A stretch of 64,000 nt of DNA. Source: Methanofastidiosum sp. Its GTDB lineage: Archaea > Methanobacteriota_B > Thermococci > Methanofastidiosales > Methanofastidiosaceae. The stretch is taken from positions 18,093 to 82,092 of the forward strand of contig JABLXD010000007.1 in NCBI GenBank assembly GCA_013178285.1, read 5' to 3'. Shown piece after piece: positions 1 through 49,937 of the stretch; position 1 is the first letter of the stretch; each line of letters starts with the position of its first letter. Made by a program: the position numbers and the translations under genes. The notes beneath the pieces were generated by a model. It was given only the letters and a program-made list of their open reading frames with translations. It did no database searches and was not told where the DNA came from.

Positions 1-75
1 ACAAGATATTACTCATTAATCAATGCAAGCTACAAAGGCTCTTTTAATGATTTATATTATGAAATAATAGAGTGA

Positions 76-780
76 TTACTCTATTACAATCAAAGCATCT
101 ACAGCCACAGCACCTTTTTCGGAAACAAATACGGGATTTAAATCAAGTTCTTTTACTTCTGGAAAATCAGAAACAAATTTTGATACTTTAAGCATAATGT
201 CCACTAGTGCATCTATATCTGATGGTTTCTCTCCCCTGACCCCACAAAGCATCTGATGTGATCTAATCTCAGAAATCATTTCGTATGCATCTTCCTTTTC
301 TATAGGGATAATCCTAAATGATACGTCTTTTAATACTTCAACAAAGATACCACCAAGTCCAAACATGAGGACATGGCCGAATTGATTGTCTTTAGAAACT
401 CCTATAATAACTTCTCTTTGCTTTGGCATCATGTGCTGGACTATTACACCTCTTATGTCTGCATCAGGCTTAAAGTTCTTTGAGTTCTGTATTACCTTCC
501 TATATCCTTCTAAAATATCCTCTGCTTTTGATAAATTCAAAAATACTGCACCTGCATCGGTCTTGTGTTGGATATCGGGTGACGCAATTTTTAGTACTAC
601 CGGATACTCTACTTTTCTTGCAATCTTTAGTACTTCTTCTTCAGAAGTTGCAATTCCTTCTTTTGGTACTTTTATCCCATAAGCTTTCATTATTTCCTTA
701 GCTTCATGTTCCATCAAAGAATTTCTTCCTTCAGATTTTACAAATTCCAATATTTTCCTTACGCTCTCTATGGATATCAC
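76..780 (-). CDS. acdB: Acetyl-CoA synthetase (ADP-forming), beta subunit (ATP-grasp domain)
   Basis: The 234 aa protein has ATP-grasp-like motifs (VVLKIASPDIQHKTDAGAV). It overlaps the downstream end of the alpha-subunit gene by about 50 nt, which is the typical two-gene ACD arrangement. Confidence 0.75.
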   Translation of the reverse strand: MISIESVRKILEFVKSEGRNSLMEHEAKEIMKAYGIKVPKEGIATSEEEVLKIARKVEYPVVLKIASPDIQHKTDAGAVFLNLSKAEDILEGYRKVIQNSKNFKPDADIRGVIVQHMMPKQREVIIGVSKDNQFGHVLMFGLGGIFVEVLKDVSFRIIPIEKEDAYEMISEIRSHQMLCGVRGEKPSDIDALVDIMLKVSKFVSDFPEVKELDLNPVFVSEKGAVAVDALIVIE

Positions 781-2140: not shown

Positions 2141-2191
2141 ATTTTCACAAACTTCTATGGTATTAGCTAATTTAAATATATTTTGTAAAAT

Positions 2192-3704
2192 CTATATTTT
2201 TATCAATTCATCTTTTAATATAGATCTAGTCCTGCCCACAGTTTCTGGGTTAATAGAGTCCCCAAATATATCGTTGAATATCCTATAATATAATAGTTCT
2301 TCTTTTGATCTTAAAATTGTATTTTTTCCTATATTTTTTTCTTTGTCGAATTCCTTATTCGATATCTGATTCTCTGCATGATTTGCCATCAAATCTTTTG
2401 ACCCGGCACCATGAGAGAATTTTTCTTTTGGCCTATGAATTTTCATACGGCAGCATATCTTTGAATGCTTCTCTTAAAATATATTTTTCAACTCTTTTTT
2501 TGTGATGTAATTTCCAGGTTACAGGGATCCCTAATGAAGTTTCAATAACATTTTTGTCCAGAAAAGGTACTCTTGCTTCTAAACTAAATGCCATGGTCAT
2601 CCTATCGGTACGTTGAAGATTTGTGTTATGTAGGTTAGATATCAGATTATATAATTCACTTTGAAATTCATACGGATTAGATATTTCTGACATGTATTTA
2701 TATCCACCAAACAATTCATCTGCGCCCTCACCAGTTAATATTACTTTAACATATTTTGAAGCCAGCTTTGCTAGAAAATAATTTGGGACTGCGCTTCGAA
2801 TTAATGCAGCATCAAAAGACTCCAAGTGCTTTATCACTGTAGGGAGGGCTTTTAGAATATCTTCAGCATCATATAAATAAGTATGATGATTAGTATCCAA
2901 ATATTCAGAAACCATTAAGGATAATTCCAAATCTTTACATCCAAGTGTACCCACAGCAAAAGTATCCAAAGGATCTTTTTGCTCTCTTGCTAGGGCCGTT
3001 ATAATACTACTATCAAGCCCACCACTTAAAGCAACGCCAAGTGGAACATTTTCATCTACAATCAATCTTAAGTTAACAGCCTTTTTTAGAGAGTCTTTTA
3101 TTTTAATTAAATCTTCCTCCAAAAATGGATCTGTTTTTAGATTTGGTATTAATGAATTAGAGAAATCATAATATTTTTTGAATCCAAAGTTGGAATGCCA
3201 ATATGTTCCACTAGGGAATTCAATAATTCTCCCGCCTAAACCTGATAGGGCTTTAATCTCTGAAGCAAAATAAATTGTGTCTTCATTTATTATATAATAC
3301 AAAGGTTTAATCCCAATAGGATCCCTTGCCAAAAATAAGCTATTTTTGTTAATTATAGCAAATGAAAACATACCATTAAATTTGTTCACGATTTCTGGGC
3401 CATACTTTAAATAAAGTCTTAAAATTGTTTCTGTGTCCGAATCGGTTGAAAATTCCTCATCTGTGAGTGAACGAAGATTCTGATGATTGTATATCTCTCC
3501 ATTAAAAACTATTAAATGATCTTTATATTCCATTGGTTGTATCCCAGAATCAACATCAATAATGGCAAGCCTGCAGTGTCCATAGACGCCCATTTCAGAT
3601 TCAATAATATTGTTGTCGTCTGGCCCTCTATGAAGAATTTTAAATAATCCTTTTGATACACTATTCTTATCTTTGCTAGGAAAGCTTCCAATAAAACCAC
3701 ACAT
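2192..3704 (-). CDS. asnB: Asparagine synthetase (glutamine-hydrolysing) AsnB, interrupted by a single-nucleotide frameshift near 2440-2446
   Basis: The 423 aa ORF (2433-3704) starts with Met-Cys (MCGF, a class II Ntn amidotransferase nucleophile) and has the PP-loop SGGLDSS. The 84 aa ORF (2192-2446) in another frame carries the AsnB C-terminal signature (HRPKEKFSHGAGS, LLYYRIFNDIFG). The junction lies in an A4/T4 run (gaaaat). Confidence 0.75.
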
Positions 3705-3824
3705 TATGCTCCCTCCTAAAGAATAAAATTAGTAAATAAAATCTTTAGGAATCTTCTTCTAGAGAATCTTTTGGGAGGGCCTTTAAATAATTAACTATTT
3801 TTAAAAATAAATAGAAAAGATTAT

Positions 3825-5696
3825 TCAAGAAGATTTGATGATTTCTTCTATCTTTTCTTTTACGATTTTATTAATTAAACTACCATCTACTTTTCCCCTA
3901 AATTCCTTCATGCATAAACCCATTAGTGGAGAAATAGCACGGTCTCCTTTTTCTATTATGAAATCTCTTTTCTCTAGGATAATTTTCTCAATTGCAGATT
4001 CAACGTCAGAAGAATTGTTCTCTGAAGAGAACTCTGATAAGACTTTTTCAATATCTTCTCCTTTTGAAACTCTCTTCAAAACCTCTTCAATCCCTTCTTT
4101 TGCTATAATCCCTTTTGATACTTTTTCAAAGAGTAAGTATAGGATTTCATCATCTGTTACATATCCTTCTTCTCTTTCTAGATTTTTTGAAAGATCTAAA
4201 GCTTTTATAAATATAGTAGATTTTATATCAAGGGAAGATGAAACTTTTTCAAAAAGTTCAGGGCCTTCATAAACTATTCTTTCCGCCTCTTCCTTCTTAA
4301 GCCCATATTTGTCGATAAATCTGTTAACCTTCTCATCAAAAGTTTCAGGCAGATTAATTTTAATTTTTTCTATTAATTCTGATTGAATAGAAAATGGAGG
4401 GATATCGGTTTCAGGATACATCCTTGCCCTTCCTGGAAGTGGACGAGAATATTTTGAATTCCCATCTTCTAATGCATCCCTTGTTTCATTGGGAACTTCA
4501 GAAAATGCCTTTTTGCACCTCTCAAAGACTTCTTCTAAAGCCTTATAGCATATGTTCTCCTTCCCAGTTACGATAACAAAAGAATCCATTTCTTCAATCT
4601 TAAGTTTTGTTTTTACTTTAGTTACTTCATCTATTGTTATTCCATAGTTTGGAAGTTCATCTATATGGAATAGTCCAGAGAGTCCATATGTTTTCACATG
4701 ATCCGCTAGTTCTGTTCCAAATCTTCGCCCTTTTTGAATTTCATTTCCAAGAATTCCTCTGAAATTTTTCAATTTTATTGCATAGACTCCTCCATTCTTT
4801 TTGATGGAACTAGCAATTATCTTAGATGAAGTATTATTAAAAATATCAGTAAGTTCAGTGACCTTAAACTCAAGATCTTTTTCAGATCCTCTTTTATACA
4901 ATTCTTTCTTAATTTCAACGAGATTGATCTGTCTTTCAATTTCTCTTTCAATCCATAAAGGTATCATTTCTAGTTTTTGGACTCCTTTTAGTTCAACTCT
5001 TCCACCTTCTCTAATGGAAACATTTAGATCTTGTCTTATTGTTCCTAAACCTCTCTTTACCTTCCCCGTTGCCCTTAAGATTTGCCCCAAAATATATGCC
5101 GCTTCTTTTGCCTGTTCGGGATTAGAAATATCGGGGCCAGTAGCTATTTCAACTAAAGGTATTCCCAATCTATCAAGCCTAAATGTTTTAGTGGTATCAT
5201 CTTGACTAATTAATCTAGCCGCGTCTTCCTCGAGACATACTGTTAGAATTGAAACTGGACCTTCTTTAGTTTCAATGTATCCATCTGTTGATATAAGCAT
5301 GGTTCTCTGAAAAGCAGAGGTATTTGATCCATCAAGAACAGTTTTTCTCATCACCTGTATCTCTTCAACTATATTAGAATTAAGCAGTAAAGAAACTTCA
5401 ACTCCAATTACCTTGGCTTCTTCAGAAACAAGATGGGGTGGTTCTTCATCAAGTTCAACTAGACAGTTTGTATCATAATATTGGTAGATATAGGTTTTAC
5501 CCCTCATATATTCTTTTAAAGCGGCAACGTCTACTTCACCTATTTCAGAAGGGGTTGGCCTTAGTTTTCTTTCAATTGTATCAAAAGGATCATCAGTTCT
5601 AAGAACTGTTGGACAATCACAAAATAGTTTTCTTTTAGTATTTAATTGTTGATGGATTTCTAATCCTACTCTAAGTCCAAGTTCCTTATAGTCCAT
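3825..5696 (-). CDS. gatE: Glutamyl-tRNA(Gln) amidotransferase subunit E
   Basis: The 623 aa protein has the GatE N-terminus MDYKELGLRVGLEIHQQLNT..KLFCDCPT. It overlaps gatD by 11 nt. Confidence 0.9.
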   Translation of the reverse strand: MDYKELGLRVGLEIHQQLNTKRKLFCDCPTVLRTDDPFDTIERKLRPTPSEIGEVDVAALKEYMRGKTYIYQYYDTNCLVELDEEPPHLVSEEAKVIGVEVSLLLNSNIVEEIQVMRKTVLDGSNTSAFQRTMLISTDGYIETKEGPVSILTVCLEEDAARLISQDDTTKTFRLDRLGIPLVEIATGPDISNPEQAKEAAYILGQILRATGKVKRGLGTIRQDLNVSIREGGRVELKGVQKLEMIPLWIEREIERQINLVEIKKELYKRGSEKDLEFKVTELTDIFNNTSSKIIASSIKKNGGVYAIKLKNFRGILGNEIQKGRRFGTELADHVKTYGLSGLFHIDELPNYGITIDEVTKVKTKLKIEEMDSFVIVTGKENICYKALEEVFERCKKAFSEVPNETRDALEDGNSKYSRPLPGRARMYPETDIPPFSIQSELIEKIKINLPETFDEKVNRFIDKYGLKKEEAERIVYEGPELFEKVSSSLDIKSTIFIKALDLSKNLEREEGYVTDDEILYLLFEKVSKGIIAKEGIEEVLKRVSKGEDIEKVLSEFSSENNSSDVESAIEKIILEKRDFIIEKGDRAISPLMGLCMKEFRGKVDGSLINKIVKEKIEEIIKSS

Positions 5697-6975
5697 TCTT
5701 ATCCCCCTTTATACGATAGTTTATCTCTCCAGCCATATTATCAAGCATGTTTCTTTTTACCTCAAAGTAGTCGTTTGTGTGGCCTAAAATCCAAGATAGT
5801 TTGAGATATGCCGTTTCAGGTAGCATATCTTCAGCGTATATTACACCCATCTCTTCCATTATCCTTCCGTTGGAGTACACAAATGGGTCTACCCTACCAA
5901 ATAGGCACTGTGTTGCAAAAACAACTATTATGCCTTGCTCCCTCGCTCTTTTAATTGAATTTACCCAAGAAAACTTTTCATTAATTGTATCTGTTGGAAC
6001 ATGACCTAGAGCTGACGCCTCAATCACTAACCCTTTGTATCCTTTGTCAATATAATAATCAAGGATTTCTGGGTTAAAATTTGGATATGCCTTAATAATT
6101 GCAGTCCTTTCTTCCATCTCTATGTCCGCATATACTTCATTATCGTCATTTCTTAATCTATAATCTGATATTTTCTCAAATTTTCCATTCATGAATACTT
6201 TGGCTAAAGGAGATGTATTTATGGGCCTAAATGTATCCCTTCTTGTAGAATGCATTTTTCTGACTTTTGTTCCTCTTAGGACATTGCAATAGGTATCGCT
6301 CATTTCTCCGTGCATCACTATAACAGCTTCACCCATATCTGACTGCCCGGCGATATATGAAGCACATATTAAATTCATAGAACCATCAAAACTTCCCCTA
6401 TCAGGACTTCTTTGTGCACCTACTAGACAAACTGGTTTTGATAGATTTTGGAGCATGAAGGATAATGCAGCGGAAGTATAATGTAGTGTATCAGTTCCAT
6501 GAGTGATAATAACTCCTTTTGATCCAGCGTTTAATTCTTTCGCTGCTTCTTTGGCCAATATTCTATAGCATTCAAAAGTCATTGATTCGGAGGCTATCTG
6601 AAAAGGAGATGAGATATTTCTAAAAGTTGCTATATCTGAGAGTTCAGGTGCCATAAAAAATATTTCTTCCGGTTTCATAAGCCATCTGACTCCCCCCGTT
6701 TCATAATCTACTCTCGAAGCGATTGTCCCTCCTGTAGAAATCAAAGATATTTCAGGGATATCCTTACGTTTTTGGAACTTAACTTCAGAAAATATTTTTG
6801 GTTTTTCTTTTTTCTCTACGTTTATTATTTCAACGGACTCTTTTCTAAAACCAATATTATATCCATTAGATAATTTAATAATAATTGAATCTTTTTTAGG
6901 AGAAGGTATGACTATTCCTTCGTAACTAATTTTACCCCTCCTTAATGTAATAACATCTCCAACTTGTGGCTCCAT
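5686..6975 (-). CDS. gatD: Glutamyl-tRNA(Gln) amidotransferase subunit D (asparaginase-like)
   Basis: The 429 aa protein has the L-asparaginase motif STGGTIAS after an N-terminal extension. It forms an operon with gatE, which is archaea-specific. Confidence 0.9.
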   Translation of the reverse strand: MEPQVGDVITLRRGKISYEGIVIPSPKKDSIIIKLSNGYNIGFRKESVEIINVEKKEKPKIFSEVKFQKRKDIPEISLISTGGTIASRVDYETGGVRWLMKPEEIFFMAPELSDIATFRNISSPFQIASESMTFECYRILAKEAAKELNAGSKGVIITHGTDTLHYTSAALSFMLQNLSKPVCLVGAQRSPDRGSFDGSMNLICASYIAGQSDMGEAVIVMHGEMSDTYCNVLRGTKVRKMHSTRRDTFRPINTSPLAKVFMNGKFEKISDYRLRNDDNEVYADIEMEERTAIIKAYPNFNPEILDYYIDKGYKGLVIEASALGHVPTDTINEKFSWVNSIKRAREQGIIVVFATQCLFGRVDPFVYSNGRIMEEMGVIYAEDMLPETAYLKLSWILGHTNDYFEVKRNMLDNMAGEINYRIKGDKNGL

Positions 6976-7060
6976 ATTTAAGAATAAGAAGAATACTATA
7001 TAAGTGTTTTACATATTAAAAAAATTAGAAAATAAAATAATAGATGAAATAAAAATAGAT

Positions 7061-8308
7061 TTAGTAACCAAACCCTCTTGCCTTCATTGCGTCGACTACT
7101 CTTTGGATTGCAACTGCATAAGAAGCTGTTCTCATGTCAATGTTGTATTTTTCCTTAGCCGCGATTACGTCCCAGAAAGCTTTTGTCATCTTCTTGTCAA
7201 GTTTTTCGTATACTTCATCTGCAGACCAGTAGTAATTCATTAGATTCTGGACCCACTCAAAGTAAGATACTGTTACACCACCTGCATTGCATAAGAAGTC
7301 AGGTAGCTGGTAAACTCCCTTTTTAATAAGTATTTCATCGGCTTCAGGGGTAACTGGCCCGTTTGCAAGTTCGGCCACCATTTTTGCTTGGATCTTGTCT
7401 GCATTTTTAGCAGTGATTTGATTTTCAAGTGCAGAAGGACATAGGATATCACATTTAAGGAATAATAGTTCTTCATTAGTTATGTTTTTTGCACCAGGGA
7501 AGTCCACGACAGAGCCTGTTTTTTCCTTATGCTCAAGGACCTTATATGGGTCAAGTCCTGCTTCGTTATAAATTCCTCCTTGAGAATCAGAAACAGCTAT
7601 GACTTTTGAACCTTGGTCATGTAGGAATTGTGCAATGTATGAACCTGCATTTCCATATCCCTGAACTGCAGTTGTTGTTTTCTTCATATCCCATTTCAAA
7701 TACTTTACATATTCTCTAATTGTGTACCATGCACCTTTTGCAGTTGCGTCTCCTCTTCCTAGTGAACCCCCTATAGACAAAGGCTTTCCGGTAATAACTC
7801 CTGGAGAGTAGTGTTGCCTTATCTTAGAGAATTCATCCATCATCCATCCCATTATTTTTGGATTGGTATAAACATCAGGAGCTGGAACATCTAACTCTGG
7901 ACCAATAAATTTGTAAATTGCTGCAATAAATCCTCTGGAAAGTCTCTCAATTTCTCGATCGCTCATTTCCTTTGGATTACAAATTATTCCTCCTTTTCCC
8001 CCTCCGTATGGGATATCGACGACTGCGCATTTCCACGTCATCCAAGCGGCAAGTGCCCTTACTTCTGATGGAGATACATTCCAGTGATATCTTATACCTC
8101 CTTTTGTTGGACCTCTGGCATCGTTATATTGACATCTATAACCAGTAAAAACCTTAACATTACCATTGTCCATAGTAACTGGCACGGTTACCTCAAGAAA
8201 TCTTTTTGGCCTTTTAAGTGCCTCGTATATTCCTTCATCAAGTTTCAGAACTTTGTTTACTTTTTCAAGTTGTTTTAATACATTTTCAAAAGGATCTATG
8301 TTTTCCAT
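7061..8308 (-). CDS. gdhA: Glutamate dehydrogenase (Glu/Leu/Phe/Val dehydrogenase family)
   Basis: The 415 aa protein has the GGGKGG glycine-rich motif, the K-containing catalytic region and an NAD(P)-binding GYGNAGSY motif. Confidence 0.9.
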
Positions 8309-8510
8309 AGAATACCTCCCCTTTGGAATGTTAAATTTTTAAGTATTTAAATCTTAGTTATTTTCTTTGGCAGAAAAAGTTACAATTTGACATTAAATTA
8401 TCAAACATAATGCCAGTTTTACCTATTTTAAAATTAATTAGATTATAAATGGCCTTAAATTGTACAAAAAAATAAGTGAAAAAATAGTTAAGCCGTACGA
8501 TATTCGGAGG

Positions 8511-9131
8511 TTATATATCCTCTTCCATAAGGGTAACCATATACTTGTTAAATAGAAGATCTTTCCCTGGAAAACTTTCCCCATGTCCTGGAAAAACTTC
8601 TTTAACTTTAATATCGCATAGCTTTTTTAAAGATTCCTTTAAATCTTCAAGACTTCCGGATGGCAAGTCATATCTGCCAACTGATCCTTTGAAAACGGTG
8701 TCACCTGAAAAGAGGTAACTCTTATCTTCTTCAAGTAGGCACATTGATCCTGATGTATGCCCAGGTGTATGAATTACTTTAAGCAAGTAATCTCCAAGAT
8801 CAATTTCATCGTTTTCTTTGAGGGGATTTACATCTTTAAATCCTTCAAAAGTTTCTGAAAATCCCCAGAAAAAAGTTTTCTCTGATCCATTCTTTATGTC
8901 AAGGTAGTCTTTTTCATGCGCATATATCGGTACCTGAAAAAATTTATTGCCGCCGATATGGTCGTAGTGACAATGCGTATTAATAATAATATCTATTTGT
9001 AAATCATTTTCATCTACATAATCGTATATTCTGTAGTTTTTGTATGTTCCTGTATCAATTAGTGCAGTTATATCACTTTCAAGGATGTAACAATTAGAGT
9101 CAACACCAATGGACTCTATAAAATGAAACAT
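8511..9131 (-). CDS. MBL-fold metallo-hydrolase (glyoxalase II-like)
   Basis: The 206 aa protein has the HxHxDH motif (HCHYDHIGG) and the later His/Asp ligands HTPGHT and GD. Confidence 0.7.
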   Translation of the reverse strand: MFHFIESIGVDSNCYILESDITALIDTGTYKNYRIYDYVDENDLQIDIIINTHCHYDHIGGNKFFQVPIYAHEKDYLDIKNGSEKTFFWGFSETFEGFKDVNPLKENDEIDLGDYLLKVIHTPGHTSGSMCLLEEDKSYLFSGDTVFKGSVGRYDLPSGSLEDLKESLKKLCDIKVKEVFPGHGESFPGKDLLFNKYMVTLMEEDI

Positions 9132-9135
9132 TTAA

Positions 9136-11130
9136 TCACGCTTGTACTCCTAGAGATTCTTTTAATTTTGTTAGATTTTTAATAAAATCTGAATTTTTAT
9201 TTGTTATTAGTACATAGCTCAAAATATCTTCTAGTCTCTTTACTGGAACTATTTTAATCTGTTCTCTCTTTGATTTTTCTATGTATACGTCATCTTTGTT
9301 TGAGTCAGGGATAATTACTTCTTTCATTCCACTCTCTAGGGCAGCCTCTATTTTAGCAGTGACTCCGCCTATTGGAAGAACATCACCTCTAACTGAAAGT
9401 GACCCAGTCATTGCAACATCTTGTCTTATTGGAAGTTCTTCGAGTGCAGAGATAACTGCTGTTGCAACAGATACACTAGCACTATCTCCTTCAACCCCTT
9501 CATATGCTTGAAGGAACTGGATAGTAATATCAAAGCTAGATAAATCCTTGTTCGAATATCTCTTTATTAAAGAGGATACAATAGATATTGACTCCTTTGC
9601 AATTTCTCCGAGTTTTCCTGTTGCAATTACATTTCCATGAGATTTTGAGGAGGATCTACTAACACCGACCTCTATAGGCGTAATAATTCCACTTCCTTCA
9701 CCCAAAACAGCAAGCCCGTTAACTTTTCCTATCTGGGCCCCTGTGGATCCAAATATCTGGTAAGCTTTTTTCCTATCAATATAGTCATCAGCTATTTGAT
9801 GTTCAAGAGACCTAGAAAGTTTTCTTGCTTCAACAATATGCTCAACTGTAACAATATTATCTCCTCTAGATAATGCTACGTCGCCAGCTGCCCTTACCAT
9901 TCCACCAAGTTCTCTCAATCTCAAGGTAAGGTGATTCTTTCTGTTACTTCTCCTTCTTGCTTCTTGAACAATTTCAGCTACTGCGTCAAGGGAGAAATGT
10001 GGTATTTTTGCATCTTTTTTAACTTCCTGTGCAACAAATCTTACAATCTTTTTAATGTTCTCTTCGTTGGCAGGCATTGAATTTTCCATGTAAACTTCAT
10101 AACCATAACCTCTAACTCTTGAACGTAATGCAGGGTGCATGTCTCTTAAAGTTTCAAGATTTCCGGCAGCAACTAAAACAAAGTTACAGGGAACTTTTTC
10201 AGTTCTAACCATTGCACCAGAACTCATTTCGCTTTGCCCAGTTATGGGATATGCTTTTTCTTGCATACCTGTAAGAATGGCTTGTTGCATCTGGATTTTT
10301 AATGTTGAGATTTCATCTATGAACAGTAATCCTTTGTGAGCCTTGTGGATCATACCCGCTTCAACTCTTTCATGCGCAGGCGTACCAAGCCCTCCCGACT
10401 GGAATGGGTCATGTCTGACATCCCCAAGTAATGCCCCGGCGTGAGCACCTGTTCCATCCAAAAACGGAGCATGGTCCCACTTAGAATTATCAACTAATAC
10501 CTTTGGAATCATGACTTGATTTTTAATCCTAAATGTCTGCCTTCCAAAGAATATAATAACTGCGAGGAAAAGTCCCCAGAGTAACTGTCCTTGAGTTAAT
10601 GCGATTACAACGATTGCACCTATGACAAAGAAAAGTATCATTCTTTTAGTTTCTTCCTGTTTTTTTGCCATAGCTTTGTGCTCATCTATTATGAGCCTAG
10701 CCTTGCCCCTTGGAACAGTTCTTATTCTAGGCGTGTTTGGATCATCAGGATTTGGATATGCCAAGATATCTTCAAGATCCTCTTTTGGCAAAAGTTCTGC
10801 CATTGCCAATCCAAGCATTGATTTTCCTGTTCCAGGTTCTCCTATTAATAGTACATTTCTCCTTTGTTTTGCTGCGGTCTTAACGATTTCAACTGCGTGG
10901 TCCTGACCAATAACTTGATCAATTAAGTTCTCGGGAACTTCTATTTCTTCTGTAGTTGTAACATCATAAAATGATTTAATTTGTTCTCTAACTTTTTTAA
11001 CTTCTTCAGTTATGTCTACTAATTCTTCATTTAATACCTTAACATTATTTTCTTCTGATTCCGGAATAGAAGATTTTTTCTTTGCCATTACTATTTCCTC
11101 TAGAAAGACTTTAGCGTTTATAGTTATCAA
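9136..11130 (-). CDS. lonB: Archaeal membrane-bound ATP-dependent Lon protease (LonB)
   Basis: The 664 aa protein has Walker A GEPGTGKS, two hydrophobic helices inserted in the AAA+ module, and a C-terminal Lon proteolytic domain with Ser-Lys dyad context (MTGSLSVRGDVLPIGGVTAKIEAA). Confidence 0.9.
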   Translation of the reverse strand: MITINAKVFLEEIVMAKKKSSIPESEENNVKVLNEELVDITEEVKKVREQIKSFYDVTTTEEIEVPENLIDQVIGQDHAVEIVKTAAKQRRNVLLIGEPGTGKSMLGLAMAELLPKEDLEDILAYPNPDDPNTPRIRTVPRGKARLIIDEHKAMAKKQEETKRMILFFVIGAIVVIALTQGQLLWGLFLAVIIFFGRQTFRIKNQVMIPKVLVDNSKWDHAPFLDGTGAHAGALLGDVRHDPFQSGGLGTPAHERVEAGMIHKAHKGLLFIDEISTLKIQMQQAILTGMQEKAYPITGQSEMSSGAMVRTEKVPCNFVLVAAGNLETLRDMHPALRSRVRGYGYEVYMENSMPANEENIKKIVRFVAQEVKKDAKIPHFSLDAVAEIVQEARRRSNRKNHLTLRLRELGGMVRAAGDVALSRGDNIVTVEHIVEARKLSRSLEHQIADDYIDRKKAYQIFGSTGAQIGKVNGLAVLGEGSGIITPIEVGVSRSSSKSHGNVIATGKLGEIAKESISIVSSLIKRYSNKDLSSFDITIQFLQAYEGVEGDSASVSVATAVISALEELPIRQDVAMTGSLSVRGDVLPIGGVTAKIEAALESGMKEVIIPDSNKDDVYIEKSKREQIKIVPVKRLEDILSYVLITNKNSDFIKNLTKLKESLGVQA

Positions 11131-11291
11131 GCCTTTAAAAATATATCGTACTTATTATATAAGTTGTATATTTAGCAAATATTTTACATAAATTTATTAT
11201 TGGAATAATCATAAATTAATAAAAAGATGGACAAAATAAAAAAATAGAAAAATATATTAATGATTAGGCATACCAAATTCAAGGTGTTAAA

Positions 11292-12140
11292 ATGTTTGTT
11301 ACATCGCTCTCATCAAAACAAACTTTACAGCAGTTAAAGGGAGATTTCAAATTAATCGATTGCCATTTTGAAAGATTTCCTGATGGAGAAGGCTATGTCA
11401 GATTTGACGAAAAGGTAAAAAATGTTAAAGAGATTCTTATAGTACAATCATTATATTACCCGCAGGACGAGCATATAATGCAACTTTTTTTCATGATTGA
11501 TGCATTAAAAGACCTAAACATCAAAATTAATCTTCTAATTCCATATATGGCTTATGCAAGACAAGACAAGAGATTTAAAGACTGGGAATCTGTATCAGGT
11601 ATTTCTCTAGCAAAGATGATAGATAGATTCGATTTAGAATCCAAATATACGGTAGATATACACGATCTTAAAGTCACAAAAGCTATGAACGGAGAAAATT
11701 TGTCAGCTATGCCGTTGATCGCAGATTATTTGATGGATCTAAATCTAAAAGAGCCCGTTATTATTTCTCCTGACAAGGGCTCAGTTGAAAGGGCAAAAAT
11801 AGTTGCAGACCAAATGGACGCAGAGTTTGATCATCTTGAGAAAACAAGGCTTTCCGGGGACACAGTGGAGATAAGACCAAAAGAGATTAATACTAAGAAC
11901 AGAGACGTAGCAATTGTTGACGATATCATATCAACTGGGGGAACTATGGCAAAGGCATGTGAAGTCCTAAAAAGAGAAGGAACACTAAAAGTACTATCTG
12001 GGGCAACACACCTCCTAATGATATCAAATGCTGAGGAAAGACTAAAAAAGGCAGGAATAGACGGAATTTTTGGTTCTGATTCTATACCTTCCAAATTCTC
12101 GGACATCTCAATTGCATCTATAATAGAAGAAATGTTTTAG
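11292..12140 (+). CDS. prs: Ribose-phosphate pyrophosphokinase (PRPP synthetase)
   Basis: The 282 aa protein has the PRPP-binding loop VAIVDDIISTGGTMAKA. Confidence 0.85.
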   Translation: MFVTSLSSKQTLQQLKGDFKLIDCHFERFPDGEGYVRFDEKVKNVKEILIVQSLYYPQDEHIMQLFFMIDALKDLNIKINLLIPYMAYARQDKRFKDWESVSGISLAKMIDRFDLESKYTVDIHDLKVTKAMNGENLSAMPLIADYLMDLNLKEPVIISPDKGSVERAKIVADQMDAEFDHLEKTRLSGDTVEIRPKEINTKNRDVAIVDDIISTGGTMAKACEVLKREGTLKVLSGATHLLMISNAEERLKKAGIDGIFGSDSIPSKFSDISIASIIEEMF

Positions 12141-12148
12141 GGGATTAA

Positions 12149-12694
12149 ATGATTGATCTTGGGGAAGTAAAAAAGCTAAGGAAAAAATTTGGGATAACCC
12201 AAAAAGAGTTAGCCGACAAAGCAGGAGTTACTCAAGCTTACATAGCTAAACTTGAAAACAAACAAATTGATCCAAAACTTTCTACCTTCAACAAGATCTT
12301 AAATGCCTTAGAAGAGCTAAGGGCAAGAATGAAAAAAATAGAGGATGTTATGATTTCGCCAGTAATCTTTGTTCACCCCAAGGATAAAGTTAGTGACGCT
12401 ATAACAATAATGGCAAAATATAATATATCACAACTACCTGTCATGAGAAATGGAATACCAGTAGGTAGCCTTTCTGAGAAATCACTTGTAAAAAAACTTG
12501 GGCTTGGGAAAATATGTGAGAGTCCAGACCTCACAGTATCTGAGATCATGGATGAAAGTTTTCCAGTAGTTTCCAAGAGGCAAAGTTTTGTCGAAGTTTA
12601 TACCTTGCTAAAAGAAAATCAAGCCGTTCTTATAGAAGAAATGGGAAGGGTCGTAGGGATAATTACCAGGGCAGACATCCTCGATAAAATATAA
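12149..12694 (+). CDS. Transcriptional regulator with an XRE-type HTH domain and a CBS domain pair
   Basis: The N-terminal HTH is FGITQKELADKAGVTQAYIAKLE. The C-terminal half has CBS-like motifs (PVMRNGIPVGSLSEKSL, VVGIITRADIL). Confidence 0.7.
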   Translation: MIDLGEVKKLRKKFGITQKELADKAGVTQAYIAKLENKQIDPKLSTFNKILNALEELRARMKKIEDVMISPVIFVHPKDKVSDAITIMAKYNISQLPVMRNGIPVGSLSEKSLVKKLGLGKICESPDLTVSEIMDESFPVVSKRQSFVEVYTLLKENQAVLIEEMGRVVGIITRADILDKI

Positions 12695-12752
12695 TATTTT
12701 AATAGTTAATTTTAAAAACAAATCTTCATTCCATAGGAAAAGGAGGTTTGAC

Positions 12753-13202
12753 ATGCCAATAATTAATTTTAATATTACAAAAGCTGAAGTAGAAAAGAAA
12801 AAATTGGAGAAGGCCCCTGAGGGTCCAGTAAGTTTCACGCAGACACCAAACATTGTCTCAATTAAAGAGATGCAAATGTCTGGCCCCGGAGGAAGATTAA
12901 ACGTCTTAGATGTTGAGTTTGATTTCCTTTCAAATTATGAGCCTGCAGTAGGTAGTGCAAGCATAAAGGGAAATGTTTACTATCAAGAAGGCGAAGAGTT
13001 CAGAAAGAAAATCATTGAACAGTGGGAAGGTAAAAAGCAACTAGACACAGCATTTTTTGATGAAGTCATTAATGGAATAAATGCTAAATGCTACGTATTT
13101 TCAATGATGTTGATAAAGGAACTAGGCCTTCCAATCGCAACACCTTTTAGATACAGCGCTTCTCCAGACGCTGCTAAGGCTGAAAAGCCAAAGAAGAAAT
13201 AA
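12753..13202 (+). CDS. Hypothetical protein (149 aa, Lys-rich C-terminus) with a strong SD AGGAGGT
   Basis: The ORF has a good RBS and no motif I recognise. It lies immediately upstream of the methyltransferase-corrinoid fusion gene. Confidence 0.4.
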   Translation: MPIINFNITKAEVEKKKLEKAPEGPVSFTQTPNIVSIKEMQMSGPGGRLNVLDVEFDFLSNYEPAVGSASIKGNVYYQEGEEFRKKIIEQWEGKKQLDTAFFDEVINGINAKCYVFSMMLIKELGLPIATPFRYSASPDAAKAEKPKKK

Positions 13203-13277
13203 TTTTTCTATAATTAATTCTATATTTTTTCTTTTAAATTAAAAATTTATTAATGTTTTTTTAACTGATTAAATAAT

Positions 13278-13296
13278 TGGATGGCTAGACCATCCA
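13278..13296. promoter_or_regulatory. Hairpin TGGATGG-ctaga-CCATCCA (7 bp GC-containing stem) between the hypothetical ORF and the methyltransferase gene
   Basis: This perfect 7 bp inverted repeat with a 5 nt loop stands out in AT-rich intergenic DNA, about 90 nt upstream of the TTG start at 13385. Confidence 0.3.
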
Positions 13297-13384
13297 TGAA
13301 AAAGCTTTTATAAATTAATCAGAAGGAACAATCGGGTTAGTTAACCTAATTTTATTTGGTTGGCTACATAAAGGAGGAGATTAT

Positions 13385-15138
13385 TTGGCATTAAGAGAAA
13401 TGACACCATATAGAAGATTTATGTCAGCTATGGCCGGTGGTCGTGTTGACAGAACACCTACTATAGTACTTTCAAACTTTTGTAAAGAATTAATGGCTTC
13501 AACAAACGTTACCTGGCCAGCATGTCAGACTGATTCAAAGGTTATGGCACAGTTCCAGGCAGGCAGATATGAAGTTTGGGGATTAGATTTACTTATATCC
13601 CACAATGATTTAGTATCTGAATCAACTATGCTTGGTGCAGATATTGATTTAGGAACTGATTTAAGACATCCATCTGTATTAAAACATGTTCTTGAAAACA
13701 CTGACCCAACAAAATACAACTTGCCAAAAGACGTTATATCCAAGGGAAGAAATCCAATTGTTGAAGGTTCAACTAAGATTCTAGTCGAAAAATATGAAAA
13801 ACTTGTTCCTGTTTTTAGAACTGTTACAGGTCCAATGACCATTGCAGGTCACCTTTGGGGCGTAGACAGAATATTAATGTGGTCAAAACAAGAAGAAAAG
13901 AAATTTGAAGCTTGTCTTGATATTTGTACTGATCTTTGTATTGAAATCTTAGGAACTCTGTTGATTCAAGTGGCGCAGATGGATTTTACATGCCTGATCC
14001 AACAGCTTCAGGAGACTTACTTGATCCAAAGGATTACCAGTACTTCCTTGAGCCAAGATATAAGAGAATGACAAAGGAATTAAAAGATACTATGTCTATC
14101 TTACATATCTGTGGTGACACAAGAGGTTACATGGACAGGATACCACACTCTGGATTTGATGCATTCTCATTCGAGGCACCTGGTACCTCAGTTAAAGAAG
14201 CAGTTATGGGTCTTGGAGACAGGGTTACACTCGTCGGAAGTTTGGAAACAATCCCAGTCGTCATGATGGGTACACCAGAATATGTTTACACACAATCACT
14301 TAGAGATATTGCAGATGGAGTAGATATTCTTTCTCCAGCATGCGGTACACCACCAATGACTCCAAATGCAAACATAAGGGCCATGGTAGAAGCTTGTGGG
14401 CCAAAGAAAGTAAAGAGAAAAGTCGTTGCGCTAAGCAAAGAAGAGATTATAAAGAAGTACACACCAGCAAAACCTGAATTTGCAGAAATTACAAAAGCAG
14501 TCATGATAGGTGACGCAGATAAAGCTGAAAAGCTCGTAGTAGCTGCACTCGAAAAAGGATTAAAGCCAATTGATTTAGTAGAGGAAGCATTGTTACCTGG
14601 TGCAATTGGTGTAGCAGAAATGTACGATGGTGGATACGCATTCGTTCCTGAAATATTACTCGCTGCAAACGCAATGAAGAAAGGTATCAGCCACTGCCAG
14701 AGCGCAATGGGAGATGTCAAGCCAAAAGGTAAGATTATTATGCACGTTGCATTCGGTGACGTTCACGCCATTGGAAAAGACATTGTAAAGTCAATCTTGA
14801 TTGCAAAGGGATACCAAGTTACTGATCTAGGGGCAAGTGTTCCATGGGATAAAGTAATTGAAGCTGCAAAGAAAGAAAAACCTGATGTAGTATCCGGTAC
14901 TGCTTTAATGACAACAACAAGAACTGCATTCCCCAAGGTAGCCGAACTTATGAAGAAGGAAGGATTAGAGGTCCCATTCATAGTTGCCGGTGGAGCAGTC
15001 GACCCAGCTTACGCAGAGACAATGGACTATGCAATATACTGTAAAGGACCAGGAGATGCTGAGCCTGTCTTTGAAGGTATAAGAAAAGGCAAGAAGTGGC
15101 AACAAATCAGAGAAGAAGAACACAAGAAATACAAATAA
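13385..15138 (+). CDS. MtaA/MtsA-family (URO-D fold) methyltransferase fused to a C-terminal corrinoid (B12)-binding domain; interrupted by a 1-nt frameshift near 13945-13955
   Basis: The N-terminus MTPYRRFMSAMAGGRVDRTP matches the methylcobamide:CoM methyltransferase family, and the region CIEIL/NSVDSSGADGFYMPDPTASGDLL aligns with MtaA (SIEYAKAQIEAGADAVMIADPVASPDL). The C-terminal half has B12-binding_2 plus B12-binding motifs (GDVHAIGKDIVKSILIAKGYQVTDLGASVP). It starts at TTG preceded by GGAGG. ORFs 13385-14071 (frame 2) and 13990-15138 (frame 1) overlap. Confidence 0.8.
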
Positions 15139-15262
15139 ATATTTAATTTTTTCTTATTCTTTTTTTATACTAATTTTTCAATTCATTTTTATTTTAGAAG
15201 AGAGTAATCTCTCAAAAACTTTTTATATTTAGACAATTATAATTTATTCTAGGTTGATTTAA

Positions 15263-16003
15263 ATGAAAAAAATTGCTATTATAGGAGGAACTGGCGGACA
15301 GGGCTCGGGACTTGCATTGAGGTGGGCAAGAGCTGGACATGAAGTCTTTATTGGATCTAGGGAAGAGAAAAAGGCCTGTACTTCTGCCGATAGTTTAAAA
15401 ACGATTTGTATTGATACTGCATGCTCTTTGTTAGAAATAGAAAAAACAGATGTCCAAGCTGTAAAGGAAAAAGTTCCTGAAGCGAAGATATCAGGATTTG
15501 ACAATTTAGAAGCTACAAAGAAAGCAGACATAGTAGTGATAAGCGTTCCTTATTCACACTTAATTCCAACAATTGCTTCTATTAAGGAAGCTTTAACTGA
15601 AGGTAAAATAATTGTATCTGTAGTTGTGCCTCTTTCAACTGCTGTGGGCGGAAAAGCAACTACTATGATATCCCCGTGGGAAGGCAGCGCTGCTGAAGTT
15701 ATCCAGAGTTTAGTTCCAGAAAATGTTCAAGTTATTAGCGCATTTCAGAATGTTAGTGCAGATAGGCTTTCTGACCTTGAAAAAGATGTCGATTGTGATA
15801 TAATGGTATGTGGAGGCTCAAAAGATGCAAGAAAAAACATAATGGAACTTGCAAAGGATATACCTGGCGCTAGAGCAATTGATGGTGGACCACTACAAAA
15901 TGCAAGACTTATTGAGCCAATAACTGCATTGTTGATCGGGATGAACATAAGGTACAAAGTCAGAGAAGGAATGGGCATCAGATTTACTTATCTTCCTGAA
16001 TAA
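15263..16003 (+). CDS. fno: F420H2:NADP+ oxidoreductase (F420-dependent NADP reductase)
   Basis: The 246 aa protein has the N-terminal Rossmann motif IAIIGGTGGQGSGLALRWARAGHEVFIGSR. Throughout it resembles Archaeoglobus/methanogen Fno (DCDIMVCGG, IDGGPLQNARLIEPITALLI). Confidence 0.8.
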   Translation: MKKIAIIGGTGGQGSGLALRWARAGHEVFIGSREEKKACTSADSLKTICIDTACSLLEIEKTDVQAVKEKVPEAKISGFDNLEATKKADIVVISVPYSHLIPTIASIKEALTEGKIIVSVVVPLSTAVGGKATTMISPWEGSAAEVIQSLVPENVQVISAFQNVSADRLSDLEKDVDCDIMVCGGSKDARKNIMELAKDIPGARAIDGGPLQNARLIEPITALLIGMNIRYKVREGMGIRFTYLPE

Positions 16004-16020
16004 AAAATAATTTTTTAAAT

Positions 16021-16464
16021 TTATTCTGAGTATAATCCTTCTTTTTTATTATATACTTCTATTATGTTGCCATCTGGATCATAAAAATAGAAGAATCTCT
16101 TGCCATTTATTTTTGGATGGGGGTGTGTAAGCGTTACTGGCTCTGAAACTGTTTCTATGCAATTATTTACAAATTTTTGGTGAAGTGCATCAACATCCTC
16201 AACTTCAAAAGCTATGTGGTTAAATATTGAAGGACTTTCCATGAGGCCATTTTTGAATTCTACTAGCTCGATATTTACTTTGGATTTTTTATCAGATAAT
16301 ACTGCAAATACAACGTCAAAGTCATTTAGACCCGTTACTTTTTCGAACTGTTCACCGTTAATTGGATGTTCAAAGACTGCCTCTAATCCTAGTGTTTCTT
16401 TATAGAATCTTTTTGATGTTTCAAGATTTGAAACAAGTAAGGCTATGTGATTTAAAATTGCCAT
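16021..16464 (-). CDS. VOC family protein (glyoxalase/bleomycin-resistance/dioxygenase fold)
   Basis: The 147 aa protein has the N-terminus LNHIALLVSNLETSKRFYKETLGLE, typical of glyoxalase I-like proteins. Confidence 0.7.
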   Translation of the reverse strand: MAILNHIALLVSNLETSKRFYKETLGLEAVFEHPINGEQFEKVTGLNDFDVVFAVLSDKKSKVNIELVEFKNGLMESPSIFNHIAFEVEDVDALHQKFVNNCIETVSEPVTLTHPHPKINGKRFFYFYDPDGNIIEVYNKKEGLYSE

Positions 16465-16505
16465 AAATACTTTAAGAAATGGATAGTTTTAAAGGTTTTG
16501 AAATG

Positions 16506-16661
16506 ATTACTTTATAATTTTACTAATGTTATAACCGGTTTTAATATAACCTGAAAGAAGGGAGTTTCCATTATATTACAACCTTTATATTGGATAAACT
16601 TCTTTCCCTATTTTCCCTAATTTTTTCCATATCCTTAAATATATGGAAAAGATGAAATTAA
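16506..16661 (+). repeat. Intergenic module A, copy 1 (156 bp), promoter-like, with hairpin and TATA-embedded palindrome
   Basis: This copy is near-identical to 56501-56656 (same length, no indels; differences are concentrated in 16550-16570). It contains TTTATAAT, the stem TAATATAA/TTATATTA, and TTCCATAT-N8-ATATGGAA overlapping TTAAATATAT. Confidence 0.85.
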
Positions 16662-16690
16662 TCAAATTGAATTTAAGTAAGAGAGATTAA

Positions 16691-17068
16691 ATGACATTAG
16701 ACAATAACTTAATTGTTGTATTTTTATTACTTAGCTTAGTCGAACTCTTAACTTTTTTTTCTATTTTAAATAGTCTAAGATATCGTAAATATGGCAAATT
16801 GATTCGAATTGATGCGAATATTCCAGAAACTCATTATACTGGAAATGGTGTTCTAGCCTACCTAATTCTAATCTTTATGTTTGTTAATCTCTTTGCTATA
16901 TTTCTTTTGAAATTTTGGGGTTTCGTATTTTCAGTTCTATGGATAACCTTTAGCAGTATTTTCCTCTACTGGTACTGGCACACCAAGGAAGATCCTCTAA
17001 ATCGTTTCCACTACGAGCAGAAGGTCTGGGAGGATCCAAGGGACAAGAAGAAAAAGGAGACCAACTAA
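16691..17068 (+). CDS. Hypothetical small membrane protein (125 aa, three predicted TM helices)
   Basis: The ORF has hydrophobic segments and a Lys-rich C-terminus. Its stop overlaps the start of the next ORF (TAAATG). Confidence 0.5.
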   Translation: MTLDNNLIVVFLLLSLVELLTFFSILNSLRYRKYGKLIRIDANIPETHYTGNGVLAYLILIFMFVNLFAIFLLKFWGFVFSVLWITFSSIFLYWYWHTKEDPLNRFHYEQKVWEDPRDKKKKETN

Positions 17069-17752
17069 ATGACATCCGACTTCAAACCCGGCAAAGCATA
17101 CCTGATAGAAGGCAAGGGCATAGAACAGGTGAAGAGTGAGATCAAGGATTGGCTTACTGAAAAAGGGATAGAAGTAAAAGAAGAAGATGAAAATTCACTT
17201 ATAGCGTATAATTATTTTTATAGTTTCAAGATTAGCCAGATATGGATTAGTCTAAAATTGGAAAATCACATTTCTGAAACTGTTATCACTTTTGATGAAA
17301 GAGTATATAGGTTTCAGATGTGGTTGATTGTTGGGGGCCAGTACTATTACCTCGACGAAATAAGAAAAGATATGGTAAGGTATCTCAAAGGAAAAGATGA
17401 AATTGGCATCAATACAATTGGCAGATATTGCGCTTTATCATACTTGCCCATGTTGCCTGCCTTAATATTTTGGGGCGTTCCATTCTTTTCGGGAATGTTT
17501 TCCATCGTGCTTGAAGAGAGTATCTGGAATTTATTTATGAAATTATTTCTAATTTTTATCTTAATTGGTAATTTATGCTCTATGTATCTAGAATTTGTCC
17601 CTCTTAGAAAAAAATTAGACGCTCTTGCAAATTCATATGAACACTATATTGAAAAATATTCGGGAGAAGAGTATAAGGTGGACATATTTCCACTTATTGG
17701 ATATTTTTTTATCTGTCTAATATTCTTCTTTTTTATAATTTACCACATATAA
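17069..17752 (+). CDS. Hypothetical membrane protein (227 aa; about 110 aa soluble N-domain followed by TM helices)
   Basis: It is translationally coupled to the upstream ORF, and the pair is bracketed by repeat modules A1 and B1. Confidence 0.5.
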   Translation: MTSDFKPGKAYLIEGKGIEQVKSEIKDWLTEKGIEVKEEDENSLIAYNYFYSFKISQIWISLKLENHISETVITFDERVYRFQMWLIVGGQYYYLDEIRKDMVRYLKGKDEIGINTIGRYCALSYLPMLPALIFWGVPFFSGMFSIVLEESIWNLFMKLFLIFILIGNLCSMYLEFVPLRKKLDALANSYEHYIEKYSGEEYKVDIFPLIGYFFICLIFFFFIIYHI

Positions 17753-17760
17753 GACGAAAT

Positions 17761-17797
17761 TATAGTTTATTAAGTTAAACTTTATAATTTTACTAAT
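17761..17797 (+). repeat. Intergenic module B, copy 1 (TATAGTTTATTAAGTTAAACTTTATAATTTTACTAAT)
   Basis: This copy shares the 22-mer ACTTTATAATTTTACTAAT with module A and matches 58062-58100 almost exactly. It is followed by the hairpin ATTACAgggcttTGTAAT. Confidence 0.7.
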
Positions 17798-17890
17798 ATT
17801 ACAGGGCTTTGTAATATAATGAAGAATTCAATGAACTGTTTTATCTAAGAAAGGAATTAGTATATAAAAATAAATAAAATAAAATTTATT

Positions 17891-18790
17891 TTATGGAACA
17901 ACTAGTTGTATCCTTATTGTGTCAAATGTTCCATTTGTAGAGTAAGCTACCATAGAGATATTATAAGTTCCTGATGGAACGTTTGTACCTACTGTGAATG
18001 TTGCGCTGTATGTACCTATATTATGTGCCTTTATTGTCTGTGTAGCTGGAGTTAATTCTACTGTGACTCCATCTGGGAGCCCAATGAATCTTACTCTTGC
18101 ATCCTTTTGTGTAAAGAATCCTCTGTTCTCAACTTGTATCATTGTCTGCTGTACACCAGGCAAAACATTGAAAGCTGAGATGATTTTACCATCCTTTATT
18201 ATGGTTGCGCCACCGCTAACTGCAAATCCTTCAATGTCGACTTTTGGGTATAAAGCCTGCTTTCCTTTACATTCACAGATTGAGTAAAGTTTCCAGGAAT
18301 AGGTAATAGGACAATCTGAATTCTCGCTGTTTACAACTTGAATACTTTCAAATTCTTTTATTACACTTCCTTGTATAAATTCATTCTCACTAAAAGGAAA
18401 CCTAATATCCACACCATCTACAACTCCGCACTCTGGGTCAAATTGAGGTGAGCTAATCCCGTGTTCTTCTCCTTTATAGTAAGCTGTAATCCAAAAAATT
18501 GCTAGAGGGGGGTCTCCTGTACATTCTATGCATTCTTGTGTTTGCCCTTTTATTTGGAGATAGTAATAACAATCTTCAAGAATAAAAGAAGGTACACTAT
18601 ATGATCTGTTTTCGCCAGGTTGAAGAGTTGTGTTAAATGACCAAACTAGTTTTTCATTATAGCACTCAAAAGGCACCCCTTCAACAAACATATCGTCCAT
18701 TGGATTCTGACCAAGTACTGTTGAAAGGCTACTAATCGCCAATAAAAATATACCAATTAAAGCAATGATTCCTTTTTTCATGTTTACCAC
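17891..18790 (-). CDS. Hypothetical secreted/anchored Cys-rich protein with a C-terminal Ig-like (CARDB-like) domain
   Basis: It has an N-terminal signal/TM segment (MKKGIIALIGIFLLAISSLSTVLGQ) and 9 Cys. The C-terminus has a beta-sandwich-like pattern. Confidence 0.45.
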   Translation of the reverse strand: MVNMKKGIIALIGIFLLAISSLSTVLGQNPMDDMFVEGVPFECYNEKLVWSFNTTLQPGENRSYSVPSFILEDCYYYLQIKGQTQECIECTGDPPLAIFWITAYYKGEEHGISSPQFDPECGVVDGVDIRFPFSENEFIQGSVIKEFESIQVVNSENSDCPITYSWKLYSICECKGKQALYPKVDIEGFAVSGGATIIKDGKIISAFNVLPGVQQTMIQVENRGFFTQKDARVRFIGLPDGVTVELTPATQTIKAHNIGTYSATFTVGTNVPSGTYNISMVAYSTNGTFDTIRIQLVVP

Positions 18791-18887
18791 CTTTAATATT
18801 CATTTAAATGAAATCTTAATATTATATAAAAGTTTTGGATTTTACCGAGGGATTATTTGAAAGGGCCAATTTAAATATCCATTTATA

Positions 18888-18930
18888 TTTTATTAAGTTA
18901 AATTGAACTATTTTACTAAAATTACAAGCC
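18888..18930 (+). repeat. Intergenic module B-like, copy 3 (degenerate)
   Basis: TTTATTAAGTTAAAttgaacTATTTTACTAAaATTACAAGCC combines the B core with the ATTACAAGCC segment seen in module A2. Confidence 0.4.
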
Positions 18931-44254: not shown

Positions 44255-44409
44255 CTTTTTTTATTTTAATCTATTTTCTATTAAATTAATTCTATTACGA
44301 ATTTCGTAATATTGTAACTAAATAAATTGTCAAGGGAAACATTTATTAGTGATTGATATTACTTTTTAACATACTTCCACATGGGAGTACGAAAACGGAG
44401 GTATTAAGA

Positions 44410-45186: not shown

Positions 45187-45197
45187 AAAAGAAAAAG

Positions 45198-46653: not shown

Positions 46654-46688
46654 TAAACCATAAATATTCTTTTTTTATTAATAGTAAT

Positions 46689-47489: not shown

Positions 47490-47568
47490 GACGCCCTAGT
47501 AGGTATTATTTTTCTATTAATTCTCATTTTTTATAAAAATATATAAATCCAAATATTTAATATTCATC

Positions 47569-48132: not shown

Positions 48133-48232
48133 ATTCAAGTAAACTTATATATACAATGAAGGTGTCTTGATATAATAGAAAATCTTAATAAAACATTATA
48201 TTTTTTGATTCATATAATAGGAGGGTAATCAA

Positions 48233-49936: not shown

Positions 49937-49937
49937 A

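Follow-up and report, generated by a model that had tools for sequence, protein, structure and literature searches.

The present study analyzes a frame break in one gene of a 64,000-nucleotide stretch of a Methanofastidiosum sp. metagenome-assembled genome (MAG; GCA_013178285.1, contig JABLXD010000007.1, positions 18,093 to 82,092), a stretch referred to here in its entirety as the window. The gene encodes an MT2-type methyltransferase fused to a corrinoid-binding domain, and its two halves lie in different reading frames. The break is most probably a one-base deletion error in the MAG consensus, in which case the locus would be an intact, functional methyltransferase/corrinoid fusion gene; from sequence comparison we put the probability of this reading at about 0.85. 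Rival explanations, including a real and recent loss of function, mis-assembly through a paralogue and ribosomal recoding, are considered together with the evidence that bears on each.

Results

The features of the fusion gene are as follows.

13385-15138, + strand: gene for a fused MT2 (MtaA/MtsA-like) methyltransferase and corrinoid-binding protein, 584 amino acids with the missing base restored.
13394-14400, + strand: MT2 methyltransferase domain (URO-D/TIM-barrel fold), residues 4-339, from alignment with MtaA (PDB 4AY7).
13948-13949, + strand: frameshift site, one A absent; the window has GAAATC-TTAGGAAC in place of the GAAATCATTAGGAAC (Ile-Ile-Arg) of all other assemblies.
14104-14112 and 14341-14343, + strand: zinc-motif codons, His-x-Cys and Cys respectively, from alignment with MtaA 4AY7.
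14482-15057, + strand: corrinoid-binding module, from Pfam and alignment with MtaC (2I2X_B).
14482-14697, + strand: B12-binding_2 cap (Pfam, 55.6 bits, cut-off 23).
14728-15057, + strand: B12-binding Rossmann domain (Pfam, 77.8 bits, cut-off 32.1).
14758-14775, + strand: DxHxxG lower-ligand motif GDVHAIGKD (D459-V-H461-A-I-G464).

The gene begins with a TTG codon at 13385, with GGAGG ahead of it at 13373-13377. The open reading frame (ORF) in frame 2 (13385-14071, + strand, 228 amino acids) matches positions 3-200 of the Pfam URO-D profile (E 4.5e-27), and frame 1, which holds the ORF 13990-15138 (+ strand) and is open from 13945, matches over 13945-15138 URO-D positions 197-343 (E 2e-24) followed by B12-binding_2 (E 6e-15) and B12-binding (E 8e-22), so that a single URO-D domain has been cut in two with zero residues lost. 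At the DNA level the window reads ATC|TTAGG where ATC ATT AGG is expected, and alignment of full-length orthologues to the window gene leaves exactly one gap of 1 nucleotide (nt). The preliminary description of this DNA had placed a single frame switch at 13945-13955, and this agrees with the one base found to be absent between 13948 and 13949. Loss of an A from the AAA run at 13944-13946 was ruled out by the DNA alignment, which locates the missing base beyond that run.

Comparison with other assemblies and species is consistent with the gene being whole in nature. In a multiple alignment the site was in frame in all eight orthologues and all three stand-alone paralogues from other species, with codons ATY/ATA (A/G)TY/ATA AGA encoding Ile-Ile/Val-Arg. 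The A was also present in the contigs of seven independent assemblies of near-identical strains (L031, from GCA_013415705.1; L034 and L044, from ERZ724082; L036, from GCA_040773945.1; L040, from ERZ724080; L042, from ERZ724084; and L043, from the Logan assembly of SRR6186653). With the A inserted, the window gene of 1755 nt had 0 mismatches to the intact gene of L040 and 0 mismatches to each overlapping segment of nine further contigs, and P0003, a 416-residue partial protein from GCA_013415705.1, is identical to the window's downstream product, with CIEIIRNSV spanning the site. Relative to other species, changes were mostly synonymous on both sides of the break (against L001, 49 synonymous and 12 non-synonymous upstream, 106 and 29 downstream). 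The database protein NPV50318.1 (HPY60_03870, 228 amino acids, “hypothetical protein”, Ca. Methanofastidiosum sp.) is the frameshifted ORF including its out-of-frame tail, and therefore the frame break resides in the public MAG.

The closest comparison was with run SRR6186653, four Logan contigs of which tile the window (_24978 at 1-13522; _350137 at 13936-16535; _1705 at 16623-56530, compared over 16623-39268 and 43821-56530; and _32381 at 58068-64000). Over about 57 kb the window departed from these contigs by 2 mismatches and in 2 deletion events, one of which is that in the fusion gene, where an SRR6186653 contig has the A and is otherwise identical to the window over 2601 nt. The second is a private loss of 2 nt at about 2440/2441, in the asparagine synthase gene at 2192-3704 on the minus strand, which is split into products of 423 amino acids (2433-3704) and 84 amino acids (2192-2446) on that strand; the window has TATGAAA--ATTCATAGG, without TT, where TATGAAATTATTCATAGG is found elsewhere. 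Six other assemblies have this gene intact at 504 amino acids, among them Logan contig SRR6186653_24978, which otherwise has 0 mismatches over 8140 nt. Deletions are thus as many as substitutions, both fall in conserved genes and both are contradicted by an independent assembly of what seems to be one and the same population, which is the signature of consensus error. Two other possibilities were tried and rejected. An error-prone long-read assembly with many indels is ruled out by the total of only 2 indels and 2 mismatches over about 57 kb, and the overlapping ORFs 76-780 and 731-2140, considered as a further frameshift, are the normal alpha/beta subunit pair of an ADP-forming acetyl-CoA synthetase and were called alike in other assemblies.

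A very recent, private loss of function in a sub-population dominating the sample of this MAG, i.e. a fresh pseudogene, would also produce such a break. The deletion is after all in the deposited MAG, so the assembler had support for it, and homopolymer slippage does not apply at this site. Against this, the gene is otherwise without any difference from the contigs of near-identical strains, the independent assembly of SRR6186653 has the base in a sequence matching at every other position compared, and with the asparagine synthase frameshift there would be two simultaneous null alleles alongside only 2 substitutions in about 57 kb. Moreover, the fusion appears from the literature to be the methyl entry point of this lineage (PMC7302380, PMC7382037), and a null allele should be strongly counter-selected. 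A real deletion of this kind is therefore considered unlikely.

Both deletions lie in a common 10-nt context, TGAAATYATT (13940-13955 and 2435-2450; p about 0.008 in a random-pair test), of which the window has only one undamaged copy, at 17538-17547. This hints at a context prone to systematic sequencing or consensus error. It could instead be that both deletions are real, the product of a motif-targeted mutational or editing hotspot at TGAAATYATT that knocked out key genes in one sub-population of this uncultured methanogen, and to this we give a very small chance.

The genus also offers a possible route for error through repeated sequence. Methanofastidiosum genomes carry, in addition to the fusion, stand-alone MT2 paralogues of 341-349 amino acids that are 80-83% identical to the N domain, and many short-read contigs break inside the fusion gene at about 13522-13965 (L006, L008, L010, L016, L019, L021-L036 and L041-L044). 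These breaks are likely caused by near-exact stretches common to the stand-alone MT2 paralogue, and the broken contigs give rise to partial database records carrying the label “uroporphyrinogen decarboxylase family protein” or “methylmalonyl-CoA mutase cobalamin-binding domain”. The missing base probably lies within such an exact fusion-paralogue repeat. An assembler might in that case have carried a deletion in the paralogue, whether real or itself an error, into the fusion locus via the exactly shared stretch; consistent with this, many short-read contigs have one of their ends in the interval from about 13522 to 13965. The right-hand contigs begin at 13889, 13911 and 13936, positions that approximate 13965 minus (k-1) for k values of 77, 55 and 31, and the longest exact matches between fusion and paralogue are located at 13865-13947. 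However, the exact repeat is a presumed one, the paralogue recovered being from another sample, every paralogue seen is in frame, and the asparagine synthase deletion occurs at no contig break, which indicates that a repeat is not needed for such errors. Mis-threading is thus regarded as very unlikely.

Programmed ribosomal frameshifting, or other recoding, could in principle yield a full-length protein from the frameshifted mRNA, since the reading frame is unbroken in each half and the junction costs no residue. This mechanism was excluded because the frame change is not conserved, being found in 0 of 11 orthologues and paralogues of other species and 0 of 7 near-identical strains, and because there is no X XXY YYZ slippery heptamer at GAA ATC TTA GGA; its probability is negligible. 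The preliminary description had offered sequencing error, fresh pseudogenization and, less likely, recoding as origins of the indel. The seven near-identical-strain contigs with the base and the second private deletion speak for the first of these, and the orthologues in frame speak against the last.

Several observations weigh against the preferred reading of a consensus error in a functional thiol-using gene. The missing base lies outside any homopolymer, and de Bruijn assemblers seldom invent deletions. The deletion may truly occur in some reads, and the shared TGAAATYATT context could reflect a real site-specific process. With regard to function, the N domain favours no substrate-specific equivalog (rounded scores of 252 against 400 for MtaA and 174 against 600 for MtbA), and the C domain is nearest to the methanol corrinoid protein MtaC. 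The thiol substrate of the fusion protein is a genome-based prediction with metatranscriptome support (PMC7382037).

The domain architecture described initially, an MtaA-family methyltransferase joined to a B12-binding_2/B12-binding pair, held up when Pfam and NCBIfam cut-offs were applied. Profile searches for MtaA/CmuA and B12-binding domains, as suggested in the preliminary description, place the C-terminal domain above the thresholds of the B12-binding profiles, and the N domain (residues 4-339) exceeds those of NF004889 (methylcobalamin:CoM methyltransferase, 289.6 bits, cut-off 244) and TIGR01463 (MtaA/CmuA family, 264.1 bits, cut-off 235.4). The protein falls below the substrate-specific equivalog cut-offs for MtaA (NF040654, 251.9 against 400) and MtbA (NF041608, 174.5 against 600) and below those of the MtaC equivalogs NF040669 and NF040655 (206.5 against 450 and 194.6 against 420). 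Alignment with MtaA 4AY7 matches HIC (residues 241-243) to HICG and Cys320 to the cysteine of PGCG, and the equivalents of H241, C243 and C320 in the MtaA structure are reportedly zinc ligands. The GDVHAIGKD motif noted at the outset is present and family-invariant. H241, C243, C320, D459, H461 and G464 were unchanged in an alignment of 8 diverse fusions down to 27% identity. A HMMER search of 1.84 billion representatives returned 3255 relatives at E <= 1e-30, and many of these, including proteins of Hadarchaeum, Bacillota, Armatimonadota and Thermanaeromonas, are full-length fusions with the same domain order, with fusions of the opposite order also present. The MT2-corrinoid fusion architecture is common and not peculiar to this locus.

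The joined translation has intact orthologues of 584 amino acids over 100% of its length, P0001 at 96% and P0002 at 86% identity, and P0002 and members of the P0001 cluster have been deposited under the name “Methylated-thiol--coenzyme M methyltransferase”. A scan of GTDB species genomes identified 30 loci, every one from Methanofastidiosum or Methanofastidiosia MAGs. On these matches the locus is assigned to the Methanofastidiosum methylated-thiol:CoM methyltransferase orthologous group, and the fusion gene is already known, having been both annotated and treated in the literature.

The following features adjoin the fusion gene.

12149-12694, + strand: HTH_3 (XRE-type) regulator with two CBS domains, from Pfam; synteny conserved in the genus.
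12753-13202, + strand: 149-amino-acid orphan protein (p149), directly after the HTH-CBS gene; a genus-conserved neighbour.
13278-13296, no strand: palindrome TGGATGG-N5-CCATCCA with perfect 7-bp arms; a probable operator.
13298-13315, + strand: BRE/TATA-like element GAAAAAGC TTTTATAAAT, nearly invariant in the alignment and abutting the palindrome.
15263-16003, + strand: NADPH-dependent F420 reductase (Fno/NpdG), the downstream neighbour, from TIGR01915 and synteny.

Gene order across the genus is GDH, a metallo-beta-lactamase (MBL)-fold protein, LonB, Prs, the helix-turn-helix (HTH)-CBS regulator, p149, the fusion, Fno and a glyoxalase, as established in L001-L005, L007, L009 and L011. At L012, a sister-clade fusion with 54% identity, p149, HTH-CBS and Fno are not among the neighbours. 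Both flanking genes named in the preliminary description were identified correctly, the downstream Fno by TIGR01915 (npdG, 248.5 bits, cut-off 149.8) and the upstream regulator by its Pfam HTH_3 and two CBS domains. No tRNA was found in the window, and exact-sequence look-ups of P0093, of PolB and of a radical-SAM ORF returned nothing on record.

Downstream of p149 comes a T-rich tract, and then the palindrome. Its arms are invariant and its loop variable in 22 loci of the genus, and it occurs upstream of the fusion gene only, being absent at the paralogue loci and at the 54%-identity L012 locus. The adjoining GAAAAAGC-TTTTATAAAT, read against the archaeal promoter consensus as a transcription factor B recognition element (BRE) and TATA box, is the putative promoter of the fusion gene. 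Because the palindrome follows the T-rich tract and abuts this element, the likeliest role for it is that of a transcription-factor operator, which we regard as probable, and the neighbouring HTH-CBS regulator may be what binds it. An RNA hairpin is possible as well: folded as RNA the palindrome has -10 kcal/mol with z = -2.5, and there is no covariation because the arms never vary. The region upstream of the fusion gene had no Rfam match at the gathering threshold, and so no riboswitch or known RNA. A second small palindrome, GGTTAGTTAACC at 13334-13347, is placed after the TATA-like element and ahead of the Shine-Dalgarno sequence, is nearly invariant genus-wide and could serve as another operator, close to where transcription starts.

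For p149 there was no Pfam or NCBIfam match, in keeping with its original description as an unrecognized protein, and its homologues are confined to Methanofastidiosum. An AlphaFold2 (AF2) model of medium confidence (predicted local distance difference test, pLDDT, 77) has four long strands and two helices, and the best PDB fold matches were SecB and the Rv1957 SecB-like chaperone, both weak (E 5e-3, template modelling score, TM, 0.37-0.49). A role as partner in methyl transfer was set aside for want of support, given the missing family match, the restriction to the genus, the weak SecB-like fold and the synteny lost in the sister clade. The preliminary description had suggested p149 and the hairpin at 13278-13296 as substrate-specific partners of the fusion; this finds no support for p149, a genus-restricted orphan that is not beside the L012 fusion, and of the hairpin there remains a perfect, conserved 7-bp palindrome that looks like an operator upstream of the BRE/TATA-like element.

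Some other observations were made in the window. A direct repeat of 173 nt, 87% identical, occurs 40 kb apart at 16500-16672 and 56495-56667, with both copies intergenic and just upstream of ORF starts at 16691 and 56657. Short inverted repeats and TATA-like stretches occur within it, it has no Rfam match, and strains L040-L042 part from the window directly after 16640. Between the glyoxalase and RsgA-like GTPase genes, at about 16690-18900, are three ORFs of 125, 227 and 299 amino acids without family match. The boundaries of this segment are formed by the 173-nt repeat together with a 56-nt repeat that has copies at 17758, 18881 and 58059. The segment is absent in other species, in which the glyoxalase and RsgA-like GTPase are adjacent (L001, L006, L008). 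It may be a small strain-specific island. The ORF at 56657-58066 encodes a tetratricopeptide repeat (TPR) protein with a double zinc-ribbon N-terminus and five tandem units of 102 nt (34 amino acids) with 64-74% inter-unit identity at the DNA level.

Discussion

The nearest described counterpart of the window protein is the enzyme of Ca. Methanofastidiosum methylothiophilum (e.g. KYC45501.1, 584 amino acids), an orthologue with 86-96% identity and the same domain order and neighbourhood; the sole difference is the missing base of the window, and the thiol specificity of the group is a prediction. More distantly, the N domain is 30.7% identical to Methanosarcina MtaA (M. mazei, PDB 4AY7, E 1.1e-47), with the His-x-Cys...Cys motif aligned, and the C domain shares 39.1% identity with MtaC (M. 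barkeri, PDB 2I2X chain B, E 1.5e-47), with GDVHAIGKD aligned to GDVHDIGKN. In contrast to MtaA and MtaC, the MT2 and corrinoid proteins for methanol, there is a single polypeptide here, and no MtaB-type MT1 was found in the window. The one-polypeptide concept matches that of MtsD, MtsF (CmtA) and MtsH of M. acetivorans, in which a corrinoid domain is fused to an MT2 domain and which have been proposed to carry out both half-reactions of methylthiol:CoM transfer (bioRxiv 10.1101/548461; PMC10762971); this likeness is by description only, and no named Methanosarcina fusion was among the matches looked up (word-indexed searches and 20 HMMER clusters, all from other lineages).

The likeness to CmuA that had been proposed earlier is one of architecture. 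The chloromethane:corrinoid methyltransferase of Methylorubrum extorquens CM4 (plasmid pCMU01, NC_011758.1) is collinear, with an N-terminal methyltransferase and C-terminal corrinoid domain, and in tblastn residues 5-547 align in a single piece to cmuA of KT950741 and pCMU01 (E 4e-30), but identity is only 25-26% and there is no close sequence relationship. CmuA also differs in being bacterial, in working with CmuB and tetrahydrofolate and in having a methyl halide substrate; no cmuB-like gene was present among the surveyed window genes. The best matches outside Methanofastidiosa among the 1.84 billion representatives were unnamed fusions with the same full-length architecture, KUO42471.1 (Hadarchaeum yellowstonense), HHV55129.1 (Bacillota), MCL5283569.1 (Armatimonadota) and WP_157109975.1 (Thermanaeromonas toyohensis), which come from non-methanogen hosts and have no known function.

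The preliminary description had anticipated a methanogen-like host, and the host is indeed Candidatus Methanofastidiosum (WSA2), an H2-dependent methyl-reducing methanogen. The founding paper for the lineage is reportedly that of Nobu et al. in 2016, with genomes LNJC/LNJE/LNGC. Published accounts present the lineage as a methanogen dependent on H2 for the reduction of methylated thiols, backed by metatranscriptome data (PMC7382037; PMC7302380; PMC10654671). In such a host the C-terminal corrinoid domain would carry cob(I)amide with His461 as the lower ligand, and the N-terminal zinc-dependent MT2 domain (His241/Cys243/Cys320) would move the methyl group of a methyl thioether to Co(I), candidate donors being methanethiol, dimethylsulfide or similar compounds held by the N-domain zinc. 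That zinc site may then activate CoM-SH, with the methyl group passing from CH3-Co(III) to the coenzyme M thiolate, and methyl-CoM would subsequently be reduced to methane with electrons derived from H2. Domains, motifs and orthology come from the sequence data presented here, while the proposed substrate and pair of half-reactions follow the precedents of MtsA/MtsB and MtsD/F/H and the published genome and transcriptome interpretation of the lineage; MtsA/MtsB of M. barkeri provide the precedent for a two-step methyl transfer (PMC7374477).

The biology of the fused MT2/corrinoid protein in Methanofastidiosum has thus been described already, with a predicted substrate, and the main value of the present analysis is in quality control. 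The fragmentation of the fusion gene across short-read MAGs is probably accounted for by the stretch it has in common with the stand-alone paralogue. On the contig analyzed here an upstream asparagine synthase gene is broken likewise by a deletion. Because of what is most probably a one-base consensus error, a public MAG (HPY60_03870) annotates the signature methanogenesis enzyme of its lineage as a hypothetical protein of 228 amino acids, and a metabolic reconstruction made automatically from this MAG would report the methyl-entry enzyme, wrongly, as absent.

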